From Planctomycetota bacterium (lineage in GTDB: Bacteria > Planctomycetota > Planctomycetia > Pirellulales > Pirellulaceae), in contig JAPOIJ010000002.1 of the NCBI GenBank assembly GCA_029979005.1, positions 2,302 through 66,301 on the forward strand: a stretch of DNA of 64,000 nt, given 5' to 3'. Positions 633 through 44,195 of this stretch are shown here, one piece after another (the stretch's first letter is position 1; each line of letters opens with the position of its first letter). The translations under genes were made by a program, and so were the position numbers. The notes under the pieces are model-generated. The model saw nothing but the letters and a program-made list of their open reading frames with translations, did not search any database and was not told the DNA's origin.

Positions 633-2558
633 ATGCCCAGGCAGTATCCTAATCGTGGAAACTCAAACACGGATATTTCTCGTGCGACCTCTGTGAATCG
701 TCGTGGGCTCTTCAAGTCGGCAGTGGCGGCGGGAACGGCATTAACGGGTAGCCAGTCCCTGAAGGCAGACGGCCCATTAGGCAAGCTTGTGAAAATTGGC
801 CAACGCACAAGGTCTGGTCAATCAACTCTAAAGCAGCGTGCGGCGAGCGATTATGCGCAGAGCCTTCAAGCCTATGGTGGAAGGTTGGCTAATCCGATCC
901 GCGATTTATTTCTAACCAGTCGCGATTCTGATTCTGTTCATTTTGGCGTCGTTGTGATTGGTTCAGGATATGGTGCTTCGATTGCTGCGGCACGAATTTC
1001 GCAACGGTTAGGAGATCAATACCGGATATGTATTCTTGAGCGAGGAAAAGAGTGGGTTCCTGGAACTTTCCCCGATACATTTGCATCCGTATCGGCGAAT
1101 GCGAGCAATGTGTTTGCAGGACCGACCAAAGGCCAGCGAGCGAGACCGCTGGGGGTTTTTAACTTGATGATGAATGATGAGGTGAATATTCTCTCGGGGA
1201 ATGGTCTAGGGGGAGGTTCATTAATTAACGCCAGTATCGCGTTGCGACCCAATTCAGAAGTATTTCAACAACAGCGTTGGCCTTCCGCCTTACACAACGC
1301 GGAGGTTCTTAGTCCTTATTACGATCGAGTTGCCTCGGCATTGAGCTTGAGCCGGACTCCGTTTGATCAAACACCCAAGGTGCGTGTACGGCGTCGGGCA
1401 GCGGAGCAAATAAGTCACCGACCCGGTTTTTTTGATCGGTCAAACATTTCGGTGATGTATGACTATCGTTATCTGGATAAGAATTTTAGAAACTCTGTCG
1501 GGATGATACAGCGACCGTGTACCCTGTGTGGAGATTGCACTAACGGGTGTAATGTTGGCGCAAAAAACACGCTCGCAATGAACTATCTTCCTGTTGCTAA
1601 GCACAATGGAACTGAGATTTATACACAGGTCGAGGTGAATTCGATAGAAAAATGCGAGGGCTTCTACCGGGTTCACATGACGTACATCGAGGAGCGGAAT
1701 GGCCAGGTGGCTCGAACGCCGCTGCAAGTTAATTCAGAACTGGTCGTTGTGGGGGCGGGGAGTCCGGCAAGTGCTGCAATCTTGTTGGATTCACAAGATG
1801 AGAGCTTGCAGTTTTCTCCGAGTCTTGGGAGGCATTGGTCTGGCAACGGTGATGCGATTGGTTTTGTCACGGGTTTACCAGCGGGAACCAGCATTGGCGG
1901 TTTTGGAGCGTTTCCCGGTCAGGGCAAACGGGTTGGCCCAACGGTGCAAACAACGCTTAATTTTTGTGACGATGAAGATTTTCGAAAACATTTACTGATT
2001 CAAGACTCCTCAATTCCAAGAGGAGCACTGAATCTGTTTTCAGCATTGTTGCGCGATCCTGAGTTGGATCGCTCGATGGTCATGTTGGGGATGGGGCATG
2101 ACGAAGGTGCGGGACGTCTTGTCAAGAAAATGGGGCGTTGGCAAATTAAATGGGAAGGGCTGAAGTCCAGCGCCTATCGTCAGCGAGTGTTCCGCCAATT
2201 TGAAAAATTGGCCAATGCCCATGGTGGACGTTATAAACGGCTCAAAGCGTTCGGGGATAACCTGGTCACCGTTCACCCGCTGGGAGGGTGCGGGATGTCG
2301 GATGTGCCTACCGAGGGGGCAGTCAATCATCTCGGGCAGGTCTTTGATTATCAGAATGGTGGATATTTGGACGCGGACACGGGTGAGTTGGCAGTCCATC
2401 GAGGGTTGTATGTGTCTGACGGTTCGGTGATTCCTACGGCTCTCGGGGTTAACCCCTATATGACGATTGGTGCAATTTCCGAGCGAATTGCGAATCATAT
2501 CGTTAACAATCCCGAGCATTCCCACCTGTTTTCCGATTCGTCGTTTTCTACATCTTAA
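633..2558 (+). CDS. GMC-family FAD oxidoreductase, cholesterol oxidase (ChoD)-like, with Tat signal
   Basis: Twin-arginine NRRGLFK; FAD-binding VVIGSGYGASIAA; GNGLGGGSLINA; CTLCGDCTNGC..GAKN; C-terminal TVHPLGGC and DGSVIPTALGVNP motifs. Confidence 0.85.
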   Translation: MPRQYPNRGNSNTDISRATSVNRRGLFKSAVAAGTALTGSQSLKADGPLGKLVKIGQRTRSGQSTLKQRAASDYAQSLQAYGGRLANPIRDLFLTSRDSDSVHFGVVVIGSGYGASIAAARISQRLGDQYRICILERGKEWVPGTFPDTFASVSANASNVFAGPTKGQRARPLGVFNLMMNDEVNILSGNGLGGGSLINASIALRPNSEVFQQQRWPSALHNAEVLSPYYDRVASALSLSRTPFDQTPKVRVRRRAAEQISHRPGFFDRSNISVMYDYRYLDKNFRNSVGMIQRPCTLCGDCTNGCNVGAKNTLAMNYLPVAKHNGTEIYTQVEVNSIEKCEGFYRVHMTYIEERNGQVARTPLQVNSELVVVGAGSPASAAILLDSQDESLQFSPSLGRHWSGNGDAIGFVTGLPAGTSIGGFGAFPGQGKRVGPTVQTTLNFCDDEDFRKHLLIQDSSIPRGALNLFSALLRDPELDRSMVMLGMGHDEGAGRLVKKMGRWQIKWEGLKSSAYRQRVFRQFEKLANAHGGRYKRLKAFGDNLVTVHPLGGCGMSDVPTEGAVNHLGQVFDYQNGGYLDADTGELAVHRGLYVSDGSVIPTALGVNPYMTIGAISERIANHIVNNPEHSHLFSDSSFSTS

Positions 2559-2661
2559 GAGCAGATTGTAAAAACCATTGGGGATCGTTGATCTGAATCT
2601 GTTTCAGGTCGCTCCGCGCGAGTCACGGGGGCCTGTCGGCCAAGTAAATTTGTATTACGGT

Positions 2662-2690
2662 TTGACGAAAGCCCGCGGGGTGAGTAAAAA
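2662..2690 (+). promoter_or_regulatory. Putative sigma-70 promoter for SRP RNA/dnaX
   Basis: TTGACG, 17 nt spacer, TAAAAA, about 20 nt upstream of the SRP RNA stem. The -10 element is imperfect. Confidence 0.4.
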
Positions 2691-2709
2691 ATAGGGTAAA
2701 TCTGTTGGT

Positions 2710-2799
2710 GAGTGAGCTCCGCGAGGGGGAGCCGTGAATTGGGTCAGGCCTGAAATATGGAGCAGCCCTAAGCGGGGTACTCTTGTGCGGGGCTCTCTC
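2710..2799 (+). ncRNA. ffs: Signal recognition particle RNA (bacterial small SRP, 4.5S)
   Basis: Helix-8 signature CCGTGAA..GGGTCAGG-CC...GG-AGCAGCCC; closing stem GAGCTCCGC (2714-2722) pairs with GCGGGGCTC (2787-2795); T9 run at 2809-2817; the ffs-dnaX-ybaB-recR order is established in many bacteria. Confidence 0.88.
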
Positions 2800-2997
2800 G
2801 TCCGCAGATTTTTTTTTGCCAGCGTTGCGAAATCGAATTTTTCGGTAATTTTCACAGCGCCAACGGCGTGTTTTTTCGGACACGTTGCAAAGAGTCGCAT
2901 TTCAGCTAGATCGGGACCTACTCGTTGGCCAAGTGAATCGGTTAGAATTGGGGCTCGCCAACGACGCGAGCTCATTTCTACGGCCAATGGTTTTGTG

Positions 2998-4911
2998 ATG
3001 AATTCACCTTCGCCCACCGATGACGGACAATATAAAGTTGTCGCACTTAAATACCGCCCCCAATTGTTTGGAGAGTTGGTTGGGCAAAGTCACATTGCGA
3101 CCGCATTATCGAATGCGATTGACAAGAATCGCGTTGGTCATGCGTATCTGTTCACAGGTGCCCGCGGGGTTGGGAAAACCTCGTCAGCGCGAATTTTTGC
3201 AAAGTGTCTTAATTGTGTTGAGGGGCCAACAAAAACTCCTTGCGGGAAATGTGGTATTTGCGAAGCCGTTTCTGCTGGTGACGATGTTGATGTTCTGGAA
3301 ATTGACGGTGCGAGCAACCGGGGAATCGACGAGATTCGTTTGTTGCGATCCAATGCATCCGTTCGCCCCAGTCGTTGTAGGTATAAAATCTATATCATCG
3401 ACGAAGTGCACATGTTAACGATGCAAGCTTTTAATGCGCTGCTTAAGACGCTTGAAGAACCTCCGCCGCATGTCAAATTTATCTTTTGCACGACAGATCC
3501 TCAGAAGATACCGATTACGGTTTTATCGCGTTGTCAACGATTTGATTTTTCACCTGTTCAGACGAATGAAATCTCCAACCGCCTGTCCGAGATCGCAGCG
3601 AATGAGGGGGTGACTGCCGACGAACAAGCGTTGGCTTTGTTGGCTCGCCGTGCTAATGGATCTATGCGAGACAGTCAGTCATTACTTGAGCAACTTTTCT
3701 CGTTTTGCGGGAACTCTATTTCAGTGCAAGAAGTTCATGAGCTACTTGGCACTGCGGATATGGGCAGAATCGCTGAGATCTCAACTGCGATGGTAAATGC
3801 AGATCCCATGACTGCACTGAATTTAATCCATCATGGAATTACCGACGGTGTCGATGCTGGGCAAATGGCGGATCAGTTGCTGGGGTATTTCAGAGACATG
3901 ATGGTCGCGAGTGTCGATTGCAGTCCTGATACTTTTTTGAATTGCAGTGAAGCGGATCTTGAGCATTTGAAAACACTTTCCGATGCGATTGGTCTGGAAA
4001 CAATACTTACGATCGTACAGTTGCTTGATTCGGCAGTGGTTCGGATGCAGTCAAGCCTGCACGGACGGACGTTGCTGGAAGCGGCTGTGGTACGGGTTTG
4101 TAATCTCGAAAAACTGGAAGCCATTGCTGATTTGGTCGATCAGTTATCAGACCCCAAAAACAGCAAGGGTGCTGCAGTAAAGGCGCCGCGACAACGCGTT
4201 GAAATGAGACGAGTCGAAACCTCCGGGACGGTTGGTCAGGCGGCTCTAAAAAAAAACGAAATAGCACCTGATCCGGCTCCACAGTCGACAACGAGTGTGG
4301 CTGGCGAAACAGTGGCTCAAGATGATTCTGCAGCAAAACCGCCGGGCGGAGAGGTGTTGGAAGATGCGGGGATTGCCAAGGTAGGTAATGCTAACGTTTC
4401 TCCCGAACCAAAGGCGACGGGCATTCCGGAGATTCCGAGTGGAAGTCACGTTGCCAATGACTTGCCGAAAGCAGGCGGTGAAATAGTTTCCCCAACGGAT
4501 TCTCATTCGACGGATGCAGATGTTAGCTCGATCGAAGCGCGTTGGAAAACTGTTCTCGAAACGATGGGGGATATGACTGCCGAAATGGCCTCCAATTATG
4601 AATCGGTCGAACTTAAAGGGGCGGATCAGCTTTTGGTCACCTTGCGGGACAAGGCGAGTCGAGATCTCTGTATGAAGCCGGATCGTCGCAGTCGTTTTGA
4701 AGAAGCATTTGAAAAGGTAACCGATCGAACGGTTCGTGTTGAGTTTTTGGTTTCTCAAAACGTGATTGAAAGTCCGGCTCCGAAGCCTAAACTTACCCGT
4801 GCACAGCAGGTAAGGAAATTGCAAGATGTCGAATTGGTGAAACAGGCCATGGAATTATTTGATGCAGAAATAACAGGGTTTCGTGAACCTATGCCGTCGA
4901 AAAAGCGTTGA
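2998..4911 (+). CDS. dnaX: DNA polymerase III subunit gamma/tau
   Basis: YKVVALKYRPQ, Walker A GARGVGKT, zinc module C..C, IIDEVHML, SRCQRF. Start set at ATG 2998 because the longer ORF from 2734 overlaps the SRP RNA. Confidence 0.97.
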   Translation: MNSPSPTDDGQYKVVALKYRPQLFGELVGQSHIATALSNAIDKNRVGHAYLFTGARGVGKTSSARIFAKCLNCVEGPTKTPCGKCGICEAVSAGDDVDVLEIDGASNRGIDEIRLLRSNASVRPSRCRYKIYIIDEVHMLTMQAFNALLKTLEEPPPHVKFIFCTTDPQKIPITVLSRCQRFDFSPVQTNEISNRLSEIAANEGVTADEQALALLARRANGSMRDSQSLLEQLFSFCGNSISVQEVHELLGTADMGRIAEISTAMVNADPMTALNLIHHGITDGVDAGQMADQLLGYFRDMMVASVDCSPDTFLNCSEADLEHLKTLSDAIGLETILTIVQLLDSAVVRMQSSLHGRTLLEAAVVRVCNLEKLEAIADLVDQLSDPKNSKGAAVKAPRQRVEMRRVETSGTVGQAALKKNEIAPDPAPQSTTSVAGETVAQDDSAAKPPGGEVLEDAGIAKVGNANVSPEPKATGIPEIPSGSHVANDLPKAGGEIVSPTDSHSTDADVSSIEARWKTVLETMGDMTAEMASNYESVELKGADQLLVTLRDKASRDLCMKPDRRSRFEEAFEKVTDRTVRVEFLVSQNVIESPAPKPKLTRAQQVRKLQDVELVKQAMELFDAEITGFREPMPSKKR

Positions 4912-4975
4912 GTTTAGTTGAGTTAAGCGGTTAATCGAGCGATCCGCGGTTATTAATTTTTTGTTGGAGAACGAG

Positions 4976-5371
4976 ATGTTAAAAGGGTTAGGGAACATCG
5001 CTGCGTTGATGAAGCAGGCGCGGACTATGGGTCCCCGGATGCAGGAGCAAATGGAGGAACTGAAATCAAAAACAGTTCACGGTTCATCTGGCGGTGGCAT
5101 GATTAAGGTGCAGGCAAATGGGATTGGTCAAATATTGAGTGTTGCCATTGATCCTGCTCTTTCTCAGCAAAACGATGTCGAGATGATCCAGGATTTGCTT
5201 CCCGCTGCCATTAACGACGCGTTGGAGAAGCAACAGCAATTAAGACTAGAGGTAATGCAGTCAGTAACCGAGGATTTGCCTCTGCCCGGAAATATGGAAG
5301 ACATGCTGAAGCAATTTATGGGTGGAGATGATGGTGGCGATTCATCCGATTTGACTTCACCAAAAATTTGA
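4976..5371 (+). CDS. ybaB: YbaB/EbfC nucleoid-associated protein
   Basis: GSSGGGMIKVQANG..I.IDP..L..DVEMIQDL..AAINDA; lies between dnaX and recR. Confidence 0.92.
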   Translation: MLKGLGNIAALMKQARTMGPRMQEQMEELKSKTVHGSSGGGMIKVQANGIGQILSVAIDPALSQQNDVEMIQDLLPAAINDALEKQQQLRLEVMQSVTEDLPLPGNMEDMLKQFMGGDDGGDSSDLTSPKI

Positions 5372-5490: not shown

Positions 5491-6090
5491 ATGGCCGAAC
5501 TATCTGACTCAGTCTCAAACATGATTGATCAACTTGCAAGGTTGCCGGGAATTGGCCGGAAATCGGCGGAGCGTCTGGCGTACCACATTTTACGAGTGCC
5601 AGAATCGGAGGCTTTCGCGTTAGCCGATTCGATTCGTACGGTTCGCGAGAACGTCCGGTACTGTGAGATTTGTTTCAATCTTGCTGAAAGCGAGATGTGT
5701 AATATTTGCCGCGATCCAGCGCGTGATCAAAAGTTGATCTGTGTAGTACAGCAACCTCGAGACCTCATGGCTCTTGAGCAGTCGGGAACCTATCGCGGAC
5801 TGTATCATGTGCTGCTTGGTCGGATTGCACCGTTGGAAAACATCGGCCCCGATCAACTGACCATTGACCAGCTAATGGGGCGGGTGTCTCAGGGTACTTT
5901 TGAGGAGGTGATCATGGCCACTAATCCGACTGTTGAAGGGGATGGTACGGCGCTTCATATTTCGAATTTACTTTCAGAATTTGACATTAGATTGACGCGG
6001 CTCGCACGTGGGATCACGACTGGCAGTATTCTGGAATACACCAATAAGGAAATCTTGGCGGATGCTCTGTCTGGACGGCAACCGCTGTGA
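5491..6090 (+). CDS. recR: Recombination mediator RecR
   Basis: LPGIGRKSAERLAYH, C4 zinc finger, Toprim ATNPTVEGDGTA, TRLARGI. Confidence 0.97.
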   Translation: MAELSDSVSNMIDQLARLPGIGRKSAERLAYHILRVPESEAFALADSIRTVRENVRYCEICFNLAESEMCNICRDPARDQKLICVVQQPRDLMALEQSGTYRGLYHVLLGRIAPLENIGPDQLTIDQLMGRVSQGTFEEVIMATNPTVEGDGTALHISNLLSEFDIRLTRLARGITTGSILEYTNKEILADALSGRQPL

Positions 6091-8207: not shown

Positions 8208-9224
8208 ATGTCTTCTGATCGTAAATTTTCGGCCGCTGAAACCGAGTCCATGATTCGAGGAATAGGTGGTCTGGATCGTCCTCAAGTGAGTGATCAAAAC
8301 GATGTCATCGATACGATGATGTTGGTGAAGACTCCGGAGAATATTTCATTTCAATATGAGATCTCAGGGCCATTCTATCGATTTGTCGCTTATCTTACGG
8401 ATCTGATATTCGCATTTGGTGGTTACTTTGCCGCCGTAGGGATACTTTACTTCCTCTTGGTCGTTTTCGGTCTATTAATTGGGAATGCACTCAATACGTT
8501 TACATTTTTTGAAGTGCTTGCCGGGATCGGTTTCGGTCTGATTATGGTCGGTTTCTTTATCGTTTATTGGTTCTACGGAGCCTATATGGAAACTCGGTTC
8601 AACGGGCAGACCCTTGGGAAACGGTTGTGTGGGATCCGTGTGATTTCAGTTGACGGGCATGCGATTGACGGTGTTCAGGCAACGCTGCGGAACTTTTTTC
8701 GATTTCTAGACGTCATGCCGATCGTTCCACTTCAGATGTTACTTGGCCTGGAATCGCAAGTTCTGTTTGCGCTTCCAACGTTTCTGATTGGCTTAGTGGT
8801 GATGTCGCTCAATCGGAAGTTTCAAAGAGTAGGAGATCTGGTGGCAGGTACCGTGGTTATTTTTGAAGAAAAAAAATACCGTCCCGATCTGATTGAATTC
8901 GAAGATGAGCGTGTTCCGCGATTAGCTGAATTAATCCCTGCGGATTTTGTCGCATCTCAAGGCTTGACTCAGGTGGTTGCCGAATTTGCGGAACAGCGGG
9001 TGTATCTTGTCCCGCAACGATCGGCAGATATTGCAAAACACGTGGCTGTGCCCCTGATGGATCGCTTTGGAATTGCGGCGGACACGGATCCGGATTTGTT
9101 TATGTGTTCTTTGTATCATCGTTTGTTTGTGACTCAGGAAGCGGGCGAGTCCCAAGTGGTAACCGAAAACGGAGCCGTTGAGTTGAGTTTGCCGGTTTCG
9201 GTTGGGGAGGGAATCGAACGATGA
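8208..9224 (+). CDS. RDD family membrane protein
   Basis: RFVAYLTDLI, GQTLGKRLCGIRVI, RNFFRFLD, QRVGDLVAGTVV; C-terminal soluble extension. Confidence 0.9.
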   Translation: MSSDRKFSAAETESMIRGIGGLDRPQVSDQNDVIDTMMLVKTPENISFQYEISGPFYRFVAYLTDLIFAFGGYFAAVGILYFLLVVFGLLIGNALNTFTFFEVLAGIGFGLIMVGFFIVYWFYGAYMETRFNGQTLGKRLCGIRVISVDGHAIDGVQATLRNFFRFLDVMPIVPLQMLLGLESQVLFALPTFLIGLVVMSLNRKFQRVGDLVAGTVVIFEEKKYRPDLIEFEDERVPRLAELIPADFVASQGLTQVVAEFAEQRVYLVPQRSADIAKHVAVPLMDRFGIAADTDPDLFMCSLYHRLFVTQEAGESQVVTENGAVELSLPVSVGEGIER

Positions 9225-17171: not shown

Positions 17172-17922
17172 GTGCTCCTTGCAGCACTAAATCGGGAATG
17201 TATCGCCAGTCTTGATGCAATTGTTCGGAGAAATATTTGAGTCCGCCTCCAGTTGCAAAGGTAACCGGGGGCTCAGTAGAGATTTTTGCCATTTGTTTAA
17301 CGATTTCTAGAATGGCATATTTCTGCGAATGGTAAACGCCTTTTTGGATTGCGTCACTAGTTGATTTTCCAATTACCGAGTCGAAGCCTTGACTGGAAAG
17401 TGATTTCCCTGAATTTAAACCCAAGTCTGGCAAGGCATCGGTAAAAGTGTTGAGTCGTTTGAAGTTAGATTCGGCTCCGGGAAAGATAACCCCCCCCTGA
17501 AAAATACCTTGAGAATCCACCCAGTCGATTGTCACCGCTGTGCCTGCGTCGACGACGATGACTGGTCCTTGAGTGTGATTCAATTGCCATGCCATCCAGG
17601 CTGAGATTAATCGATCTCGCCCCAGTAACTGTCGCGATTCGATATTAGATAGAAGGTCAACATCACTCTCCTCAATAAGATAGGAGCGGTCGCTGGGTCG
17701 GTGTCGTTCGATCCAATCCAGGAGCGTTAATTCTTTTTTTTGGTGGACGCTTGAAATCGACCAGAAGAACGAGCCATTGTTCAACGGCAGTTGTTGAAGT
17801 TCCTGATTCAAGTCGGAGTCGCAGTTTAGCGTCAATTGAGTCTGCCAGTTATCGGTCATGTCAGGGCTGTCGACCGCAATCTTGATCGAACTATTTCCGA
17901 TATCAACTGCAATCAATCGCAT
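17140..17922 (-). CDS. coaX: Type III pantothenate kinase
   Basis: IAVDIGNSSIK, GRDRL, VVDAGTAVTID, GGVIFPG. Confidence 0.92.
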   Translation of the reverse strand: MRLIAVDIGNSSIKIAVDSPDMTDNWQTQLTLNCDSDLNQELQQLPLNNGSFFWSISSVHQKKELTLLDWIERHRPSDRSYLIEESDVDLLSNIESRQLLGRDRLISAWMAWQLNHTQGPVIVVDAGTAVTIDWVDSQGIFQGGVIFPGAESNFKRLNTFTDALPDLGLNSGKSLSSQGFDSVIGKSTSDAIQKGVYHSQKYAILEIVKQMAKISTEPPVTFATGGGLKYFSEQLHQDWRYIPDLVLQGARAIGKKLNNT

Positions 17923-23200: not shown

Positions 23201-24250
23201 TTGATGGAAGACAAAAAAAAAGAAGTTTCGAATGTTCTCAAGCAGGTTTCGGCCAAAGCATTGCTGTTGCGATCCATTTTTGGTGGTTTTTTGATGGGGC
23301 TGGCCAACCTTGTTCCAGGAATTAGCGGTGGGACGATGCTTTTAGCGTCGGGAGTTTATCCGGCCTTTATTGAAGCCTTGGCAGATTTGACTCGTTTTCG
23401 ATTTCGCTTTCGTTCAATTATCGTAATGGGCGCAGTCGTCGCGTCGGCGGGAATTGGGATTCTGTTGCTTGCCGGTACGCTAAAAGAGTTGGTCGTTCAT
23501 CAGCGTTGGGTGATGTACAGCATCTTTATTGGGTTGACCCTTGGTGGAATCCCAATTGTCTGGAAACTGGCACGTCCTGTAACTCCTGCACTGGTGGGAT
23601 CTGCGTTACTCTCTTTTTGCGCAATGGTTGTTTTGGCAATTTTGCAGTCAAAAGGAATTGTTGGGCAAAGCAGTTCAAATGTCTTGACGCTGTTTATTGC
23701 AGGTTTAGCGGGTGCAAGTGCGATGATTCTCCCCGGATTGTCGGGTGGATATTTGCTTCTACTGCTCGGCCAGTATGTGCCAATTCTTGGCGCAATTGAT
23801 CAGTTTAAAGATGCGCTGTCGAGCCGAGATTTTGGCGCTGCGGTCTCACCAGGATTGTCGGTTTTGTTACCCGTCGGATTGGGAGTTGTTGCCGGAGTGC
23901 TGATGGTGGGGAACTTACTGGAATGGCTGCTCCGGAAATATCGAAAGGCGACGCTTGGTATGCTTCTCGGATTGCTGCTAGGCTCGACCGTAGGCCTGTG
24001 GCCCTTTCAGGAAGGCGTACGACCAGTTCCGGGTGACACCATCAAAGGGGCGGTGGTGACCCTTGAAAACCAAGATGAAATTGAACCGGAGGACTGGAAT
24101 GTGAACTGGGTGCAGCCAGGGTTCGGGCAGATCGTGATCTCGCTGTTGCTAATCAGCGGTGGCGTGGTAGCGACTGTGGGCGTCGCGAAAGTTGGAGCGT
24201 ATCTTGATTCGAGCTCCGGCCATTCTCAAAACGAAGCCTCCGGTCAATAG
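23201..24250 (+). CDS. DUF368 family membrane protein (PopT-like polyprenyl-phosphate transporter)
   Basis: Duplicated motifs GLANLVPGISGGT and AMILPGLSGGYLLLLLGQY; multiple TM helices. Confidence 0.9.
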   Translation: MMEDKKKEVSNVLKQVSAKALLLRSIFGGFLMGLANLVPGISGGTMLLASGVYPAFIEALADLTRFRFRFRSIIVMGAVVASAGIGILLLAGTLKELVVHQRWVMYSIFIGLTLGGIPIVWKLARPVTPALVGSALLSFCAMVVLAILQSKGIVGQSSSNVLTLFIAGLAGASAMILPGLSGGYLLLLLGQYVPILGAIDQFKDALSSRDFGAAVSPGLSVLLPVGLGVVAGVLMVGNLLEWLLRKYRKATLGMLLGLLLGSTVGLWPFQEGVRPVPGDTIKGAVVTLENQDEIEPEDWNVNWVQPGFGQIVISLLLISGGVVATVGVAKVGAYLDSSSGHSQNEASGQ

Positions 24251-31730: not shown

Positions 31731-33305
31731 TTAGTTGTTTGCGGTTGAAAATATTGACGCAGGCAAGTTTTCAAAATTAACTAAGTTTGCCCCGGCGGGA
31801 TTGGCTGCCCAGGCATATCTCACTGCTTTCGGTTCCCGTACTTCTTTGCAACTTACGATAATCGTATCGTTGTGAATTTTTGCGTCAGCCCAATGCCAGG
31901 TTTGGTTATCGCCGGTGATTTCGAAACGTTGGAGTGGCTTTCCGTCGCTGGATTTCAAACCGGCACCCGTGTGATCAAATTCAATTATCATTTTTTCGGC
32001 CTCTACACGAGAAGATTTGTAGAGTGGGCCGCTGACTGTCATCGGTTTCTTGTAGTCATTGTTTAGCGCCCAACGAGCCAGCCTTAAGCCGACTGTCTTT
32101 TTGTTTTTTGGATGAATATCCTTGGCCTCTCCGACATCATTGATGGTCGCCATGCCTGTGCCCGCCAATTCCAGAGTTTTTCTTTGTTGATCCTGGACGG
32201 TAGCCCAATCGCTCCGCTGACCGGGGGCGGTCGTGACTGATTGGAAATTTGCTAATTGAACGAAGTAAAAGGGGAATTCATCGTTCCAGCGGGTGCGCCA
32301 GTCTTGGATCATCAGCGTAAACATTTCCTGATAAATTTCAGCGAGCCCTGGTTTAGCGTTCGCTTCGCCTTGATACCAGATTGCCCCCCGCATCGTGTAG
32401 CCAACGAAAGGATGGATCATGCCATTGTAAAGAACTGTGGGATTGCGCTCATTTTCATAGGTGGGTTTTATAGGTTGAGGGCGCCGGGGAAGGCGGGCCC
32501 GCTCGGAATTCGGTTTGTTCTTGTTTTGGCTCCGAACCGCAGCGGCCTTTTTTTCCCAGTTGGCCATCGCGGCATCGTATTTTTTCTTGGCCGCAGCGGA
32601 GTCAAATGATTTAGCTTCGCGGTCAAGTTCGGCGATCATTTTTTTTCCGTGCGAATTAGAAAGCATGGCTTCTCTGCTCGTGTAGCATTCTGATCGTTTG
32701 CCGCCCCAGCAAGACTGGATTATGCCAACGGGAATTCCTGTTTCCTGATTAATTTGTTTTGCAAAGTAATACGCGACGGCCGAAAATTTCCCAGACGTTT
32801 CGGGAGACGAAAGATTCCAGGTGCCTTCAATGTTTGTCTGGGGTTGGGCAGCGGGAGTGTTGGTGGCAAGAAAAAATCGAACGGCCGGGTTGTTGGATTT
32901 TGGCAAGTCCGTTTTCGCATCGAGTGAATTTTGAAGCTTAAAAGCCATGTTAGATTGCCCACTCGCAAACCAAACTTCACCAATCAAAATGTTCTTGAGT
33001 TCAACACGGTCATTGCCATTTTCAATGACCATGTTCATTCCCCGCCCATTGGCTTTCATTGCCGGTAACGTGATTTCCCAATTCCCGTTTTCATTGGATT
33101 TCGTGGAAACTGTATTTCCATGGAATACGACGTCAACCTGAGTATTGGCTTCTGCCCATCCCCAGATAGATACAGGTTTGTTCCGTTGGAGCACCATTTG
33201 GTTGCTGAAGAAAGATGGTAATTTCAATTCCGCCAATAATTCAGTGTTTGGCGAAAGGAAGCAAATTAAGCAAGCGGTGATGACAGATAACTGGTGTAGT
33301 CGCAT
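31731..33305 (-). CDS. Sialate O-acetylesterase (SASA family), exported
   Basis: Signal peptide, MVLQRNKP..IWG, GEVWFASGQSNM, GAIWYQGEAN, DIHPKNK, VRYAW. Confidence 0.9.
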   Translation of the reverse strand: MRLHQLSVITACLICFLSPNTELLAELKLPSFFSNQMVLQRNKPVSIWGWAEANTQVDVVFHGNTVSTKSNENGNWEITLPAMKANGRGMNMVIENGNDRVELKNILIGEVWFASGQSNMAFKLQNSLDAKTDLPKSNNPAVRFFLATNTPAAQPQTNIEGTWNLSSPETSGKFSAVAYYFAKQINQETGIPVGIIQSCWGGKRSECYTSREAMLSNSHGKKMIAELDREAKSFDSAAAKKKYDAAMANWEKKAAAVRSQNKNKPNSERARLPRRPQPIKPTYENERNPTVLYNGMIHPFVGYTMRGAIWYQGEANAKPGLAEIYQEMFTLMIQDWRTRWNDEFPFYFVQLANFQSVTTAPGQRSDWATVQDQQRKTLELAGTGMATINDVGEAKDIHPKNKKTVGLRLARWALNNDYKKPMTVSGPLYKSSRVEAEKMIIEFDHTGAGLKSSDGKPLQRFEITGDNQTWHWADAKIHNDTIIVSCKEVREPKAVRYAWAANPAGANLVNFENLPASIFSTANN

Positions 33306-37529: not shown

Positions 37530-37833
37530 AGGTCGATTTTGACTCTCGTGGCAATCCCACCCTTTTTTTTCAAGCGTTTCTGCGGGGGTAGTGTCAGCTT
37601 AAGGGCGTATTAAACGCGCCGTCGACGGTTACATGGGGAGAATTTTTTCCGCGATTTCATGTAAATATTTCATTGGTTTTTTTGAAATGTCGCGCAGATT
37701 CACGTTGCGGGTAGTTTCAGTTGTTTAATTCGGCATGGTTGCCGGATTCAAGCCAATCGAGGAAACTATAGGCCAGTTATTTATCCGAAAAACAACCCAA
37801 CTCGCTGAGTTGGCCAGACTGATCCGCGAGCTA

Positions 37834-43292: not shown

Positions 43293-44195
43293 TCAACTAT
43301 TTTGGTCGAAGAGACTGTCATTGTAAGCGAATACAGAAACTCCGAGTTTTTCCGCGACACGAATCGTTTCGTTCTGCTCAAGTATAATCGTGCGATCGGC
43401 TTCGATTGCAAGAACGCTTCCACCCTCGTGGGCAATGGTTTCAATGGTACCAACTCCAATGGTCGGTACATCGAACCGCATGTCTTGGTTCGGTTTGGAT
43501 ACCTTAACCACCGTAAACCCACCGGAGCAAAGGTTCCCGGCTCTGGCAATACACTGATCGGTTCCTTCGATGGCTTCGACAGCCAACACTGCTTGATTTT
43601 TAACGACGACGGTTTGCCCAATATCTAAGGCTCCCATTGCTTTGGCCATTTGCCAGCCGAATCGAATGTCCTTTAATTGGCTGTTGTTGGGTTGGTTCTT
43701 TGTCAGCGGCCCTGCTTTCACCAGTAACTCCGGAGCAAAATCAGTTGCGGGGGAAAATGTGATTCCTTCTGATTTGTACAATTCAACGACTGTGCTGAGG
43801 AGAGTGTCGTCCCGACGATCTTTCGATTTTGAAAGAATGATTGGGTAGAAATGTCGCCAAAATACCAAATCAGGAAAGTGCGTTATCAAGCTGGATTTTT
43901 TTTGAAACAGAAGCGTTTTGAATATTTTGCCAGCCATGGTGGCGTGTGCCACCCCCGCTTTGCGGAAAAAACGGCACTGGCCACCCATACGTGCCATGCC
44001 AAATACACGATAAGACGTGCAAATATCTTTTAACACAGGGTCGGCATGGTCTTTAATTCCCGTGCAGTGAACTTCGTAGCCCTGAGCCATTAGCGTCCGT
44101 GCGATGCAGACAGGGAAATGCCCCCAGCCTGCGACCAAGCCGATTTTTTTGGTTGCGAGGTTAGCTAAATTGGTATCTTGAGTTACTGTGGCCAT
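43293..44195 (-). CDS. lpxI: LpxI family UDP-2,3-diacylglucosamine diphosphatase
   Basis: IGLVAGWGHFP, LDIGQTVVV, LAVEAIEGTD, KPNQDMRFDVPTIG. Confidence 0.92.
   Translation of the reverse strand: MATVTQDTNLANLATKKIGLVAGWGHFPVCIARTLMAQGYEVHCTGIKDHADPVLKDICTSYRVFGMARMGGQCRFFRKAGVAHATMAGKIFKTLLFQKKSSLITHFPDLVFWRHFYPIILSKSKDRRDDTLLSTVVELYKSEGITFSPATDFAPELLVKAGPLTKNQPNNSQLKDIRFGWQMAKAMGALDIGQTVVVKNQAVLAVEAIEGTDQCIARAGNLCSGGFTVVKVSKPNQDMRFDVPTIGVGTIETIAHEGGSVLAIEADRTIILEQNETIRVAEKLGVSVFAYNDSLFDQNS

Follow-up and report, generated by a model that had tools for sequence, protein, structure and literature searches.

Organisation of the dnaX gene and its adenine run

The stretch of DNA analysed here, referred to in full as the window (64,000 nucleotides of contig JAPOIJ010000002.1 from a Planctomycetota bacterium of the Pirellulaceae; GC content 48%), carries on its forward strand the dnaX gene, within which a run of nine adenines (A9, 4248–4256) constitutes a proposed slippage site. 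The coding sequence extends from 2998 to 4911, stop codon counted, and specifies tau, a protein of 637 amino acids (aa) and 69 kDa that was recognised by its open reading frame (ORF) and translation and by matches in Pfam and the PDB. Three Pfam matches, all exceeding their cut-offs, cover its N-terminal part, namely DNA_pol3_delta2 (PF13177, residues 30–187), DNAX_ATPase_lid (PF22608, residues 191–238) and DNA_pol3_gamma3 (PF12169, residues 242–383), while PDB chains of Escherichia coli gamma/tau match the N-terminal 300 residues with an E value of ~2e-81. By these sequence matches the product is DnaX, with the AAA+ module, lid and domain III of the gamma/tau family. Clamp-loader domains I–III (residues 30–383, assigned by Pfam and encoded by 3085–4146) would be common to tau and the predicted gamma, and they are near-invariant in a protein alignment (alignment A1). 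Two further segments, also on the forward strand, would belong to tau only: a variable low-complexity linker (4258–4518), with near-zero conservation in the same alignment apart from the KKN over the run, and a conserved C-terminal domain (residues 508–637, 4519–4908), delimited by alignments A1 and A2 together with AlphaFold and Foldseek.

The run forms part of the sequence CTA AAA AAA AAC (4246–4257, codons 417–420 counted from the ATG at 2998), and lies 34 codons past domain III, which ends at residue 383, and ahead of the variable linker. The zero frame runs on for 217 further codons, up to 4911, giving a single uninterrupted ORF of 637 aa. Both other frames close soon downstream: in the −1 frame K R N S T precedes a TGA (4269–4271), five codons past the run, and in the +1 frame T K precedes a TAG (4262–4264), two codons past it. 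Two in-phase heptamers lie inside or over the run, namely A_AAA_AAA (4248–4254) and A_AAA_AAC (4251–4257). An earlier interpretation of this DNA made without database searches (hereafter the sequence-only reading) had proposed tau/gamma recoding at this run, leaning towards transcriptional slippage; the coordinates that it gave for the run, its codons and the two stops were exact to the nucleotide, and its placement of the run after the clamp-loader domains and before the linker agrees with the Pfam boundaries.

The sizes of the possible products were obtained from simulated mRNAs with altered lengths of the A run. The A9 mRNA yields tau (637 aa, 69 kDa) and the A12 mRNA yields tau with one additional lysine (638 aa). 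An A10 mRNA, in the same way as a −1 ribosomal shift, is terminated by the TGA at 4269–4271 and gives a product of 424 aa and 46 kDa ending in ...KKKRNST, so that the gamma of about 424 aa that had been predicted beside the 637-aa tau has the correct size for either event. The TAG at 4262–4264 terminates the products of the A8 mRNA (421 aa, ending in ...KKTK) and the A11 mRNA (422 aa, ending in ...KKKTK). Across the window only three A or T runs of nine or more exist (T9 at 2809–2817, A9 at 23213–23221 and A9 at 4248–4256), and the run in dnaX is the only one that lies deep within a gene.

Conservation of the run across Planctomycetota

Comparison of Planctomycetota dnaX genes, which the sequence-only reading had named as one way of checking its claim, was based on 80 loci from a one-genome-per-species collection; these were retrieved by means of the N-terminal peptides RIFAKCLN and DVLEIDGA, which are encoded far from the site, and 78 of them reach the site. 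A run of nine or ten adenines was present in 60 of the 78 (A9 in 37 and A10 in 23), positioned 338–404 codons downstream of the Walker A motif, which bears out the expected conservation. The distribution of lengths is bimodal, as neither A7 nor A8 was seen there in any of the 78 loci and the remaining 18 were without any A run of six or more. The carriers are labelled Pirellulaceae, Mariniblastus, Lacipirellula, Bythopirellula, Thermoguttaceae, Planctomycetaceae, Planctomyces, Planctomicrobium, Gemmataceae, Gemmata, Limnoglobus, Isosphaeraceae and Ca. Kuenenia. These loci together span 339 kb (mean GC content 60%), in which no A or T run of nine or more occurs outside the site, and only six of length eight. 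Since the run recurs at one site in 60 of 78 genes and nowhere else at this length, its presence there, on the evidence of these genomes, is not a chance event.

The 18 genomes devoid of the run were also searched at the equivalent place for an in-phase heptamer closely followed by a −1 stop, and none was found. One of them (L023) carries a C9 tract, encoding PPP, approximately 360 codons after the Walker A motif, with the stops in the shifted frames at a distance of 40 and 128 codons.

Constraint on the nucleotide sequence and closure of both shifted frames

At the protein level, residues K418, K419 and N420 are near-invariant within an otherwise unalignable linker (protein alignment of 24 relatives of 53–95% identity). 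Across the 60 carriers, the peptide over the run takes 22 different forms, for example AKKK, AKKN, EKKN, QKKT, LKKN and KKK, and the run is found in all three codon phases; because of this variety of peptides and phases, the constraint must act on the nucleotides. The codon that supplies the first A of the run specifies 10 different amino acids and is always the A-ending synonym, while A-ending codons account for just 14% of codons in these genes. Outside the site, lysine is encoded by AAA in 42% and by AAG in 58% of cases.

The same pattern is apparent over shorter evolutionary distances. In close relatives (78–94% protein identity) the run remains intact as A9 or A10 while the codon giving its first A varies between CTA, TTA, GAA and TCA, and TGA and TAG replace one another such that the −1 stop persists although the zero-frame amino acid is altered, for example from Asp to Ser. 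Compensating changes in these relatives preserve the run as well as the two stops, and the breaking of the run by synonymous substitutions, which according to the sequence-only reading would have spoken against recoding, was not seen among them.

The frequency of stops near the run was compared with that at other positions in the same genes, which served as controls. A stop in the −1 frame occurs within seven codons in 92% of the 60 loci as opposed to 16.5% of control positions (p 2e-37), and a stop in the +1 frame within the same distance in 77% as opposed to 19% (p 6e-22). Both shifted frames are stopped within 10 codons in 82% of loci, where 5% would be expected.

Search for stimulators of ribosomal frameshifting

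Features known to assist ribosomal frameshifting were sought around 61 sites. The mean z-score of RNA folding was −0.13 for the 45 nucleotides upstream and 0.01 for the 60 nucleotides downstream, neither being above background, and Shine-Dalgarno (SD)-like motifs were present at nine of the 61 sites against a background of 11%, which is no enrichment. Neither GGAG nor GAGG was found upstream of the run in the window, and the hairpin that follows it is weak, begins about 20 nucleotides downstream, has a z-score of −1.7 over the 60 downstream nucleotides and is not conserved; the weak hairpin and the want of a clear SD motif described in the sequence-only reading were thus both recovered. Folding of the site in seven close relatives identified no shared RNA structure (the consensus reached −2.9 kcal/mol and its covariation term was unfavourable), and an Rfam scan of 2400–5200 at E values up to 10 returned only the signal recognition particle (SRP) RNA and no DnaX frameshift element. 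The highly shift-prone heptamer A_AAA_AAG is absent from the run in the window, the in-phase heptamers being the two given above, while some relatives do possess an in-phase A_AAA_AAG, the base after their run being G. Additionally, no tRNA genes were found in the window.

RNA and DNA contigs over the site

Public sequencing runs were examined through Logan assembled contigs over 4050–4450, comprising metatranscriptomes (X18 and X25–X28) and runs of unstated kind (X31–X36 and X5). The contigs over the site from 13 public runs, be they of RNA, DNA or unstated kind, all have A9. Single-nucleotide polymorphisms (SNPs) at 4120, 4232, 4320 and 4333 indicate that several strains are represented; since A9 is retained in all contigs despite these multiple strains, the length of the run is shown to be stable at the level of DNA.

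In two of the metatranscriptomes (X27 and X28) the contigs break over 4162–4366 such that the run is missing, and in a third (X25) there is a gap ahead of the run, depth being low (4–10). Three other RNA runs cover the site as A9, and the breaks in X27 and X28, where depth is about 6–8, may represent coverage noise rather than dilution of k-mers by length variants. RNA runs were also sought for a relative labelled Ca. Kuenenia (L079), and the only ones found share 4–25% of the sampled words, too little to be of use.

Probable programmed slippage and the alternative explanations

Taken with the genomic comparison, the A9 run of dnaX is under selection and is very probably a functional recoding site, from which a marine Pirellulaceae-like planctomycete would obtain two DnaX proteins from one gene. 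We consider slippage of the RNA polymerase to be the main mechanism by which gamma is generated, with a probability of roughly two in three. According to this model, the polymerase would slip on the nine A:T pairs and generate a population of mRNAs with A8, A9, A10, A11 and other lengths. The A9 and A12 messages would be translated into full-length tau of 637 or 638 aa; on the A10 message the ribosome would enter the −1 frame and finish at the TGA at 4269–4271 after 424 aa; and on the A8 and A11 messages it would enter the +1 frame and finish at the TAG at 4262–4264 after 421 or 422 aa. The short forms would represent gamma, keeping domains I–III and losing the linker and the C-terminal domain of tau. 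The occurrence of slippage, its efficiency and the use of gamma in the clamp loader are what we infer from these comparisons. Slippage is favoured over a ribosomal shift since the run is either at least nine long or absent, while a heptamer needs only seven; since both shifted frames are closed, as in dnaX of Thermus thermophilus; and since stimulators of the E. coli type are absent. All of the comparative tests that were run are consistent with the tau/gamma recoding, and the lean towards transcriptional slippage, that the sequence-only reading had suggested.

It may alternatively be envisaged that gamma arises mainly by −1 ribosomal frameshifting on A_AAA_AAA or A_AAA_AAC, with termination at the same TGA. 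Both heptamers have the correct phase, the −1 frame is closed in slightly more relatives (92%) than the +1 frame, and in some relatives the heptamer is A_AAA_AAG itself; however, it is difficult to reconcile such a mechanism with runs that are never shorter than nine, or with closure of the +1 frame that is also far above expectation, and the searches for SD-like and hairpin enrichment, for conserved structure and for a match to the Rfam DnaX element were all negative. In E. coli, furthermore, shifting is far less frequent on A_AAA_AAA and A_AAA_AAC than on A_AAA_AAG (PMC5009743), and we consider it unlikely that this route is the principal source of gamma. A purely protein-level explanation, in which the run merely encodes a Lys-Lys(-Lys/Asn) motif of relevance to tau, such as a patch of basic residues where the linker begins, with no alternative product, would account for the near-invariance of K418, K419 and N420 amid a variable linker. 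Selection on the protein would not be expected, though, to fix AAA over the AAG that prevails among lysine codons elsewhere, to force an A-ending preceding codon over 10 amino acids, to permit three codon phases or to place stops in both other frames, and such an origin seems very improbable.

Still less credible is a hypermutable tract in the DNA, which by replication slippage or phase variation would toggle a population between tau and a truncated dnaX. Long homopolymers are indeed mutable in DNA, and two loci (L053 and L159) have an A10 that puts tau out of frame; set against this, dnaX is an essential replication gene, the contigs of all 13 public runs have A9 even as flanking SNPs separate strains, and the length is steady at A9 or A10 phylum-wide. 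That a homopolymer and nearby stops should have coincided by chance draws some plausibility from the 48% GC content of the window and from the presence there of one other A9 and several A8 runs, but can practically be dismissed when 60 of 78 loci share the run at one site, no other A or T run of nine or more exists in their 339 kb, and the probabilities associated with the stops are of the order of 1e-37 and 1e-22.

A number of observations weigh against programmed slippage or temper its support. The 60 genes share a phylogeny and the p-values for the stops overstate their independence, yet the flanks have diverged and the stops differ in type and position. The absence of the run from 18 of the 78 genomes indicates that it has been lost, and is dispensable, in some lineages. 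As any A9 contains an in-phase A_AAA_AAA, a ribosomal share may add to the effect. The occurrence of an A9 in another ORF of the window (23213–23221) demonstrates that such a run is not absolutely barred from coding sequence. Finally, every RNA or DNA contig over the site has A9 with no insertions or deletions; as contigs discard minority variants, this is neutral with regard to heterogeneity of the mRNA.

Comparison with known dnaX systems

Given the above, the run is best read as a site of programmed transcriptional slippage of the Thermus type that, to judge from the loci compared, is conserved over most of the phylum. In T. thermophilus, dnaX contains an A9 with close stops in both non-zero frames, so that any mRNA with an insertion or deletion that is not a multiple of three yields gamma (PMC5009743; PMC1088944); this slippage was established by Larsen et al. 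(2000), as described in the same two papers. The planctomycete gene shares with it the single ORF for tau, the sense-strand A9 past the clamp-loader domains, the close stops in both frames and independence from ribosomal stimulators. The two differ in that Thermus belongs to the Deinococcota and its slippage was shown experimentally, at about 50% efficiency, whereas the planctomycete mechanism is deduced from comparative data only, and in that the Thermus run is situated at seven-eighths of the coding sequence (PMC1088944) whereas that of the window comes two thirds of the way along (codon 418 of 637). In many bacterial genomes, selection against runs prone to slippage likewise begins to show at a length of nine (Baranov et al. 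2005, PMC1088944).

The E. coli dnaX gene resembles that of the window in the position of the site relative to domains I–III (E. coli gamma ends near residue 430), in a gamma that is devoid of the C-terminal domains of tau, and in an in-phase A-rich heptamer with a close −1 stop. Its cassette combines A_AAA_AAG with an SD-like sequence before it and a stem-loop after it, none of which dnaX of the window has apart from the weak hairpin that is not conserved, and unlike in E. coli the planctomycete run is never shorter than nine and the +1 frame, too, is closed. Caulobacter crescentus likewise obtains tau and a shorter gamma from one gene, as is proposed here (PMC5009743; bioRxiv 10.1101/2022.11.10.516041), but does so post-translationally by ClpXP proteolysis, with no slippery nucleotide signal; by analogy, proteolysis of this type is a possible route to gamma in the 18 planctomycetes without the run.

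A reversed arrangement, in which dnaX consists of two ORFs joined at an A10 and tau itself requires recoding, was described by Antonov et al. (2013, PMC3711429), who predicted transcriptional realignment at a poly-A located at the same place in dnaX. The gene of the window is, in contrast, uninterrupted, with tau as the standard and gamma as the recoded product. In two of the retrieved loci (L053, 2729–2738, and L159, 1786–1795) the zero frame meets a stop 25 or 2 codons past an A10, with the C-terminal domain of tau in the −1 frame. From their sequences, these could represent the reversed architecture, with tau itself recoded, or a homopolymer assembly error. The former, provided that the assemblies are correct, would speak for recoding at the run; an essential tau would then depend on slippage, and the programmed slippage of this phylum would have to be highly efficient.

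For other phyla, a rough impression was gained from a metagenome scan that returned mostly distant dnaX genes, one of its six search patterns (QAALKKNE) overlapping the run. Among approximately 77 distant dnaX sequences covering the site (33–61% identity, taxonomy unassigned), about 20 have A9 or A10 with stops within about seven codons in both frames, which indicates that the device extends beyond Planctomycetota. A broader scenario may be imagined in which the A9/A10 tract is the main, and possibly ancestral, route to gamma in Planctomycetota and several other phyla, the E. coli cassette is derived and the tau of the two reversed loci is slippage-dependent; we put this forward as a speculation that is more doubtful than probable.

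The reason for which bacteria maintain both DnaX forms remains a matter of debate. The searchable literature offers three routes to gamma, namely a ribosomal frameshift, slippage of transcription in Thermus and proteolytic processing in Caulobacter, each shown in one or a few model organisms, and no description of dnaX slippage in Planctomycetes was found there; the locus described here would extend the Thermus type to a poorly studied phylum. While the mechanism itself is already known, the phylum-wide pattern of a threshold at nine, independence of codon phase and stops in two frames is useful for annotation. Baranov et al. (2005) excluded cases of slippage that yield truncated products on the grounds that comparative proof is hard to obtain (PMC1088944), and this pattern is evidence of precisely that comparative kind. 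In practical terms, annotations of planctomycete dnaX should list a gamma product, and an A10 'frameshifted' dnaX in a metagenome-assembled genome should not automatically be regarded as a pseudogene or an assembly error.

The C-terminal domain of tau

The portion that gamma would lose ends in 130 residues (508–637) that are conserved in both protein alignments, A1 and A2. No sequence match for this domain was found in Pfam or the PDB. An AlphaFold model of the segment has a predicted local distance difference test (pLDDT) value of 74.8, and Foldseek matched it to the C-terminal part of E. coli tau (2aya, 5fku_E and 5fkv_E) with probabilities of 0.99–1.0, the template modelling (TM) scores being only 0.41–0.45; folds similar to DnaA domain I were matched as well. 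On the basis of the modelled fold, this domain is probably, if tentatively, the counterpart of domain V of E. coli tau, which binds the alpha subunit of the polymerase. By analogy with E. coli, we infer that the short forms would be subunits of the clamp loader that are incapable of binding the polymerase.

Neighbouring genes and other features of the window

The dnaX gene is followed by ybaB (4976–5371) and recR (5491–6090) and preceded by the SRP RNA, an order that corresponds to the classical cluster. The bacterial small SRP RNA is positioned just upstream of dnaX at 2708–2806 (Rfam RF00169, 44.5 bits, full length), and the T9 that directly follows it in the sequence, at 2809–2817, is probably the T-tract of its terminator. 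A longer ORF of 725 aa, listed mechanically from a GTG at 2734, was rejected as a listing artefact that runs through this RNA; because of the overlap with 2708–2806, the true start of dnaX is taken to be the ATG at 2998 (or the GTG at 2995). A mechanically listed antisense ORF (4246–4824, reverse strand) was likewise dismissed as an artefact of the listing.

The database proteins most similar to DnaX of the window are labelled 'Planctomycetaceae bacterium' and remoter ones Mariniblastus or Pirellulaceae, while the public runs that contain the sequence of the window derive from estuary, marine and algae-associated metagenomes. One of the related proteins (P0007, 84% identity to DnaX of the window) belongs to a cluster that is also present in EukProt under the name of a eukaryote assembly (COSAG01...). 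This suggests that the lineage contaminates or accompanies a eukaryotic (algal) culture, which fits the runs from algae metagenomes.

The second sense-strand A9 of the window (23213–23221) forms codons 4–6 (KKK) of an ORF at 23204–24250, the product of which is a membrane protein similar to VCA0040 and undecaprenyl-phosphate translocases (Pfam, 3e-42). Should the polymerase slip on A9 in this organism, this ORF would be affected too, unless its true start is downstream of the run. Sense-strand A8 runs were observed within five long ORFs (8869–8876, 17734–17741, 32639–32646, 37563–37570 and 43896–43903). Outside dnaX, the one coding A9 stands right where an ORF begins, and the distribution fits a threshold for slippage near nine in this genome.

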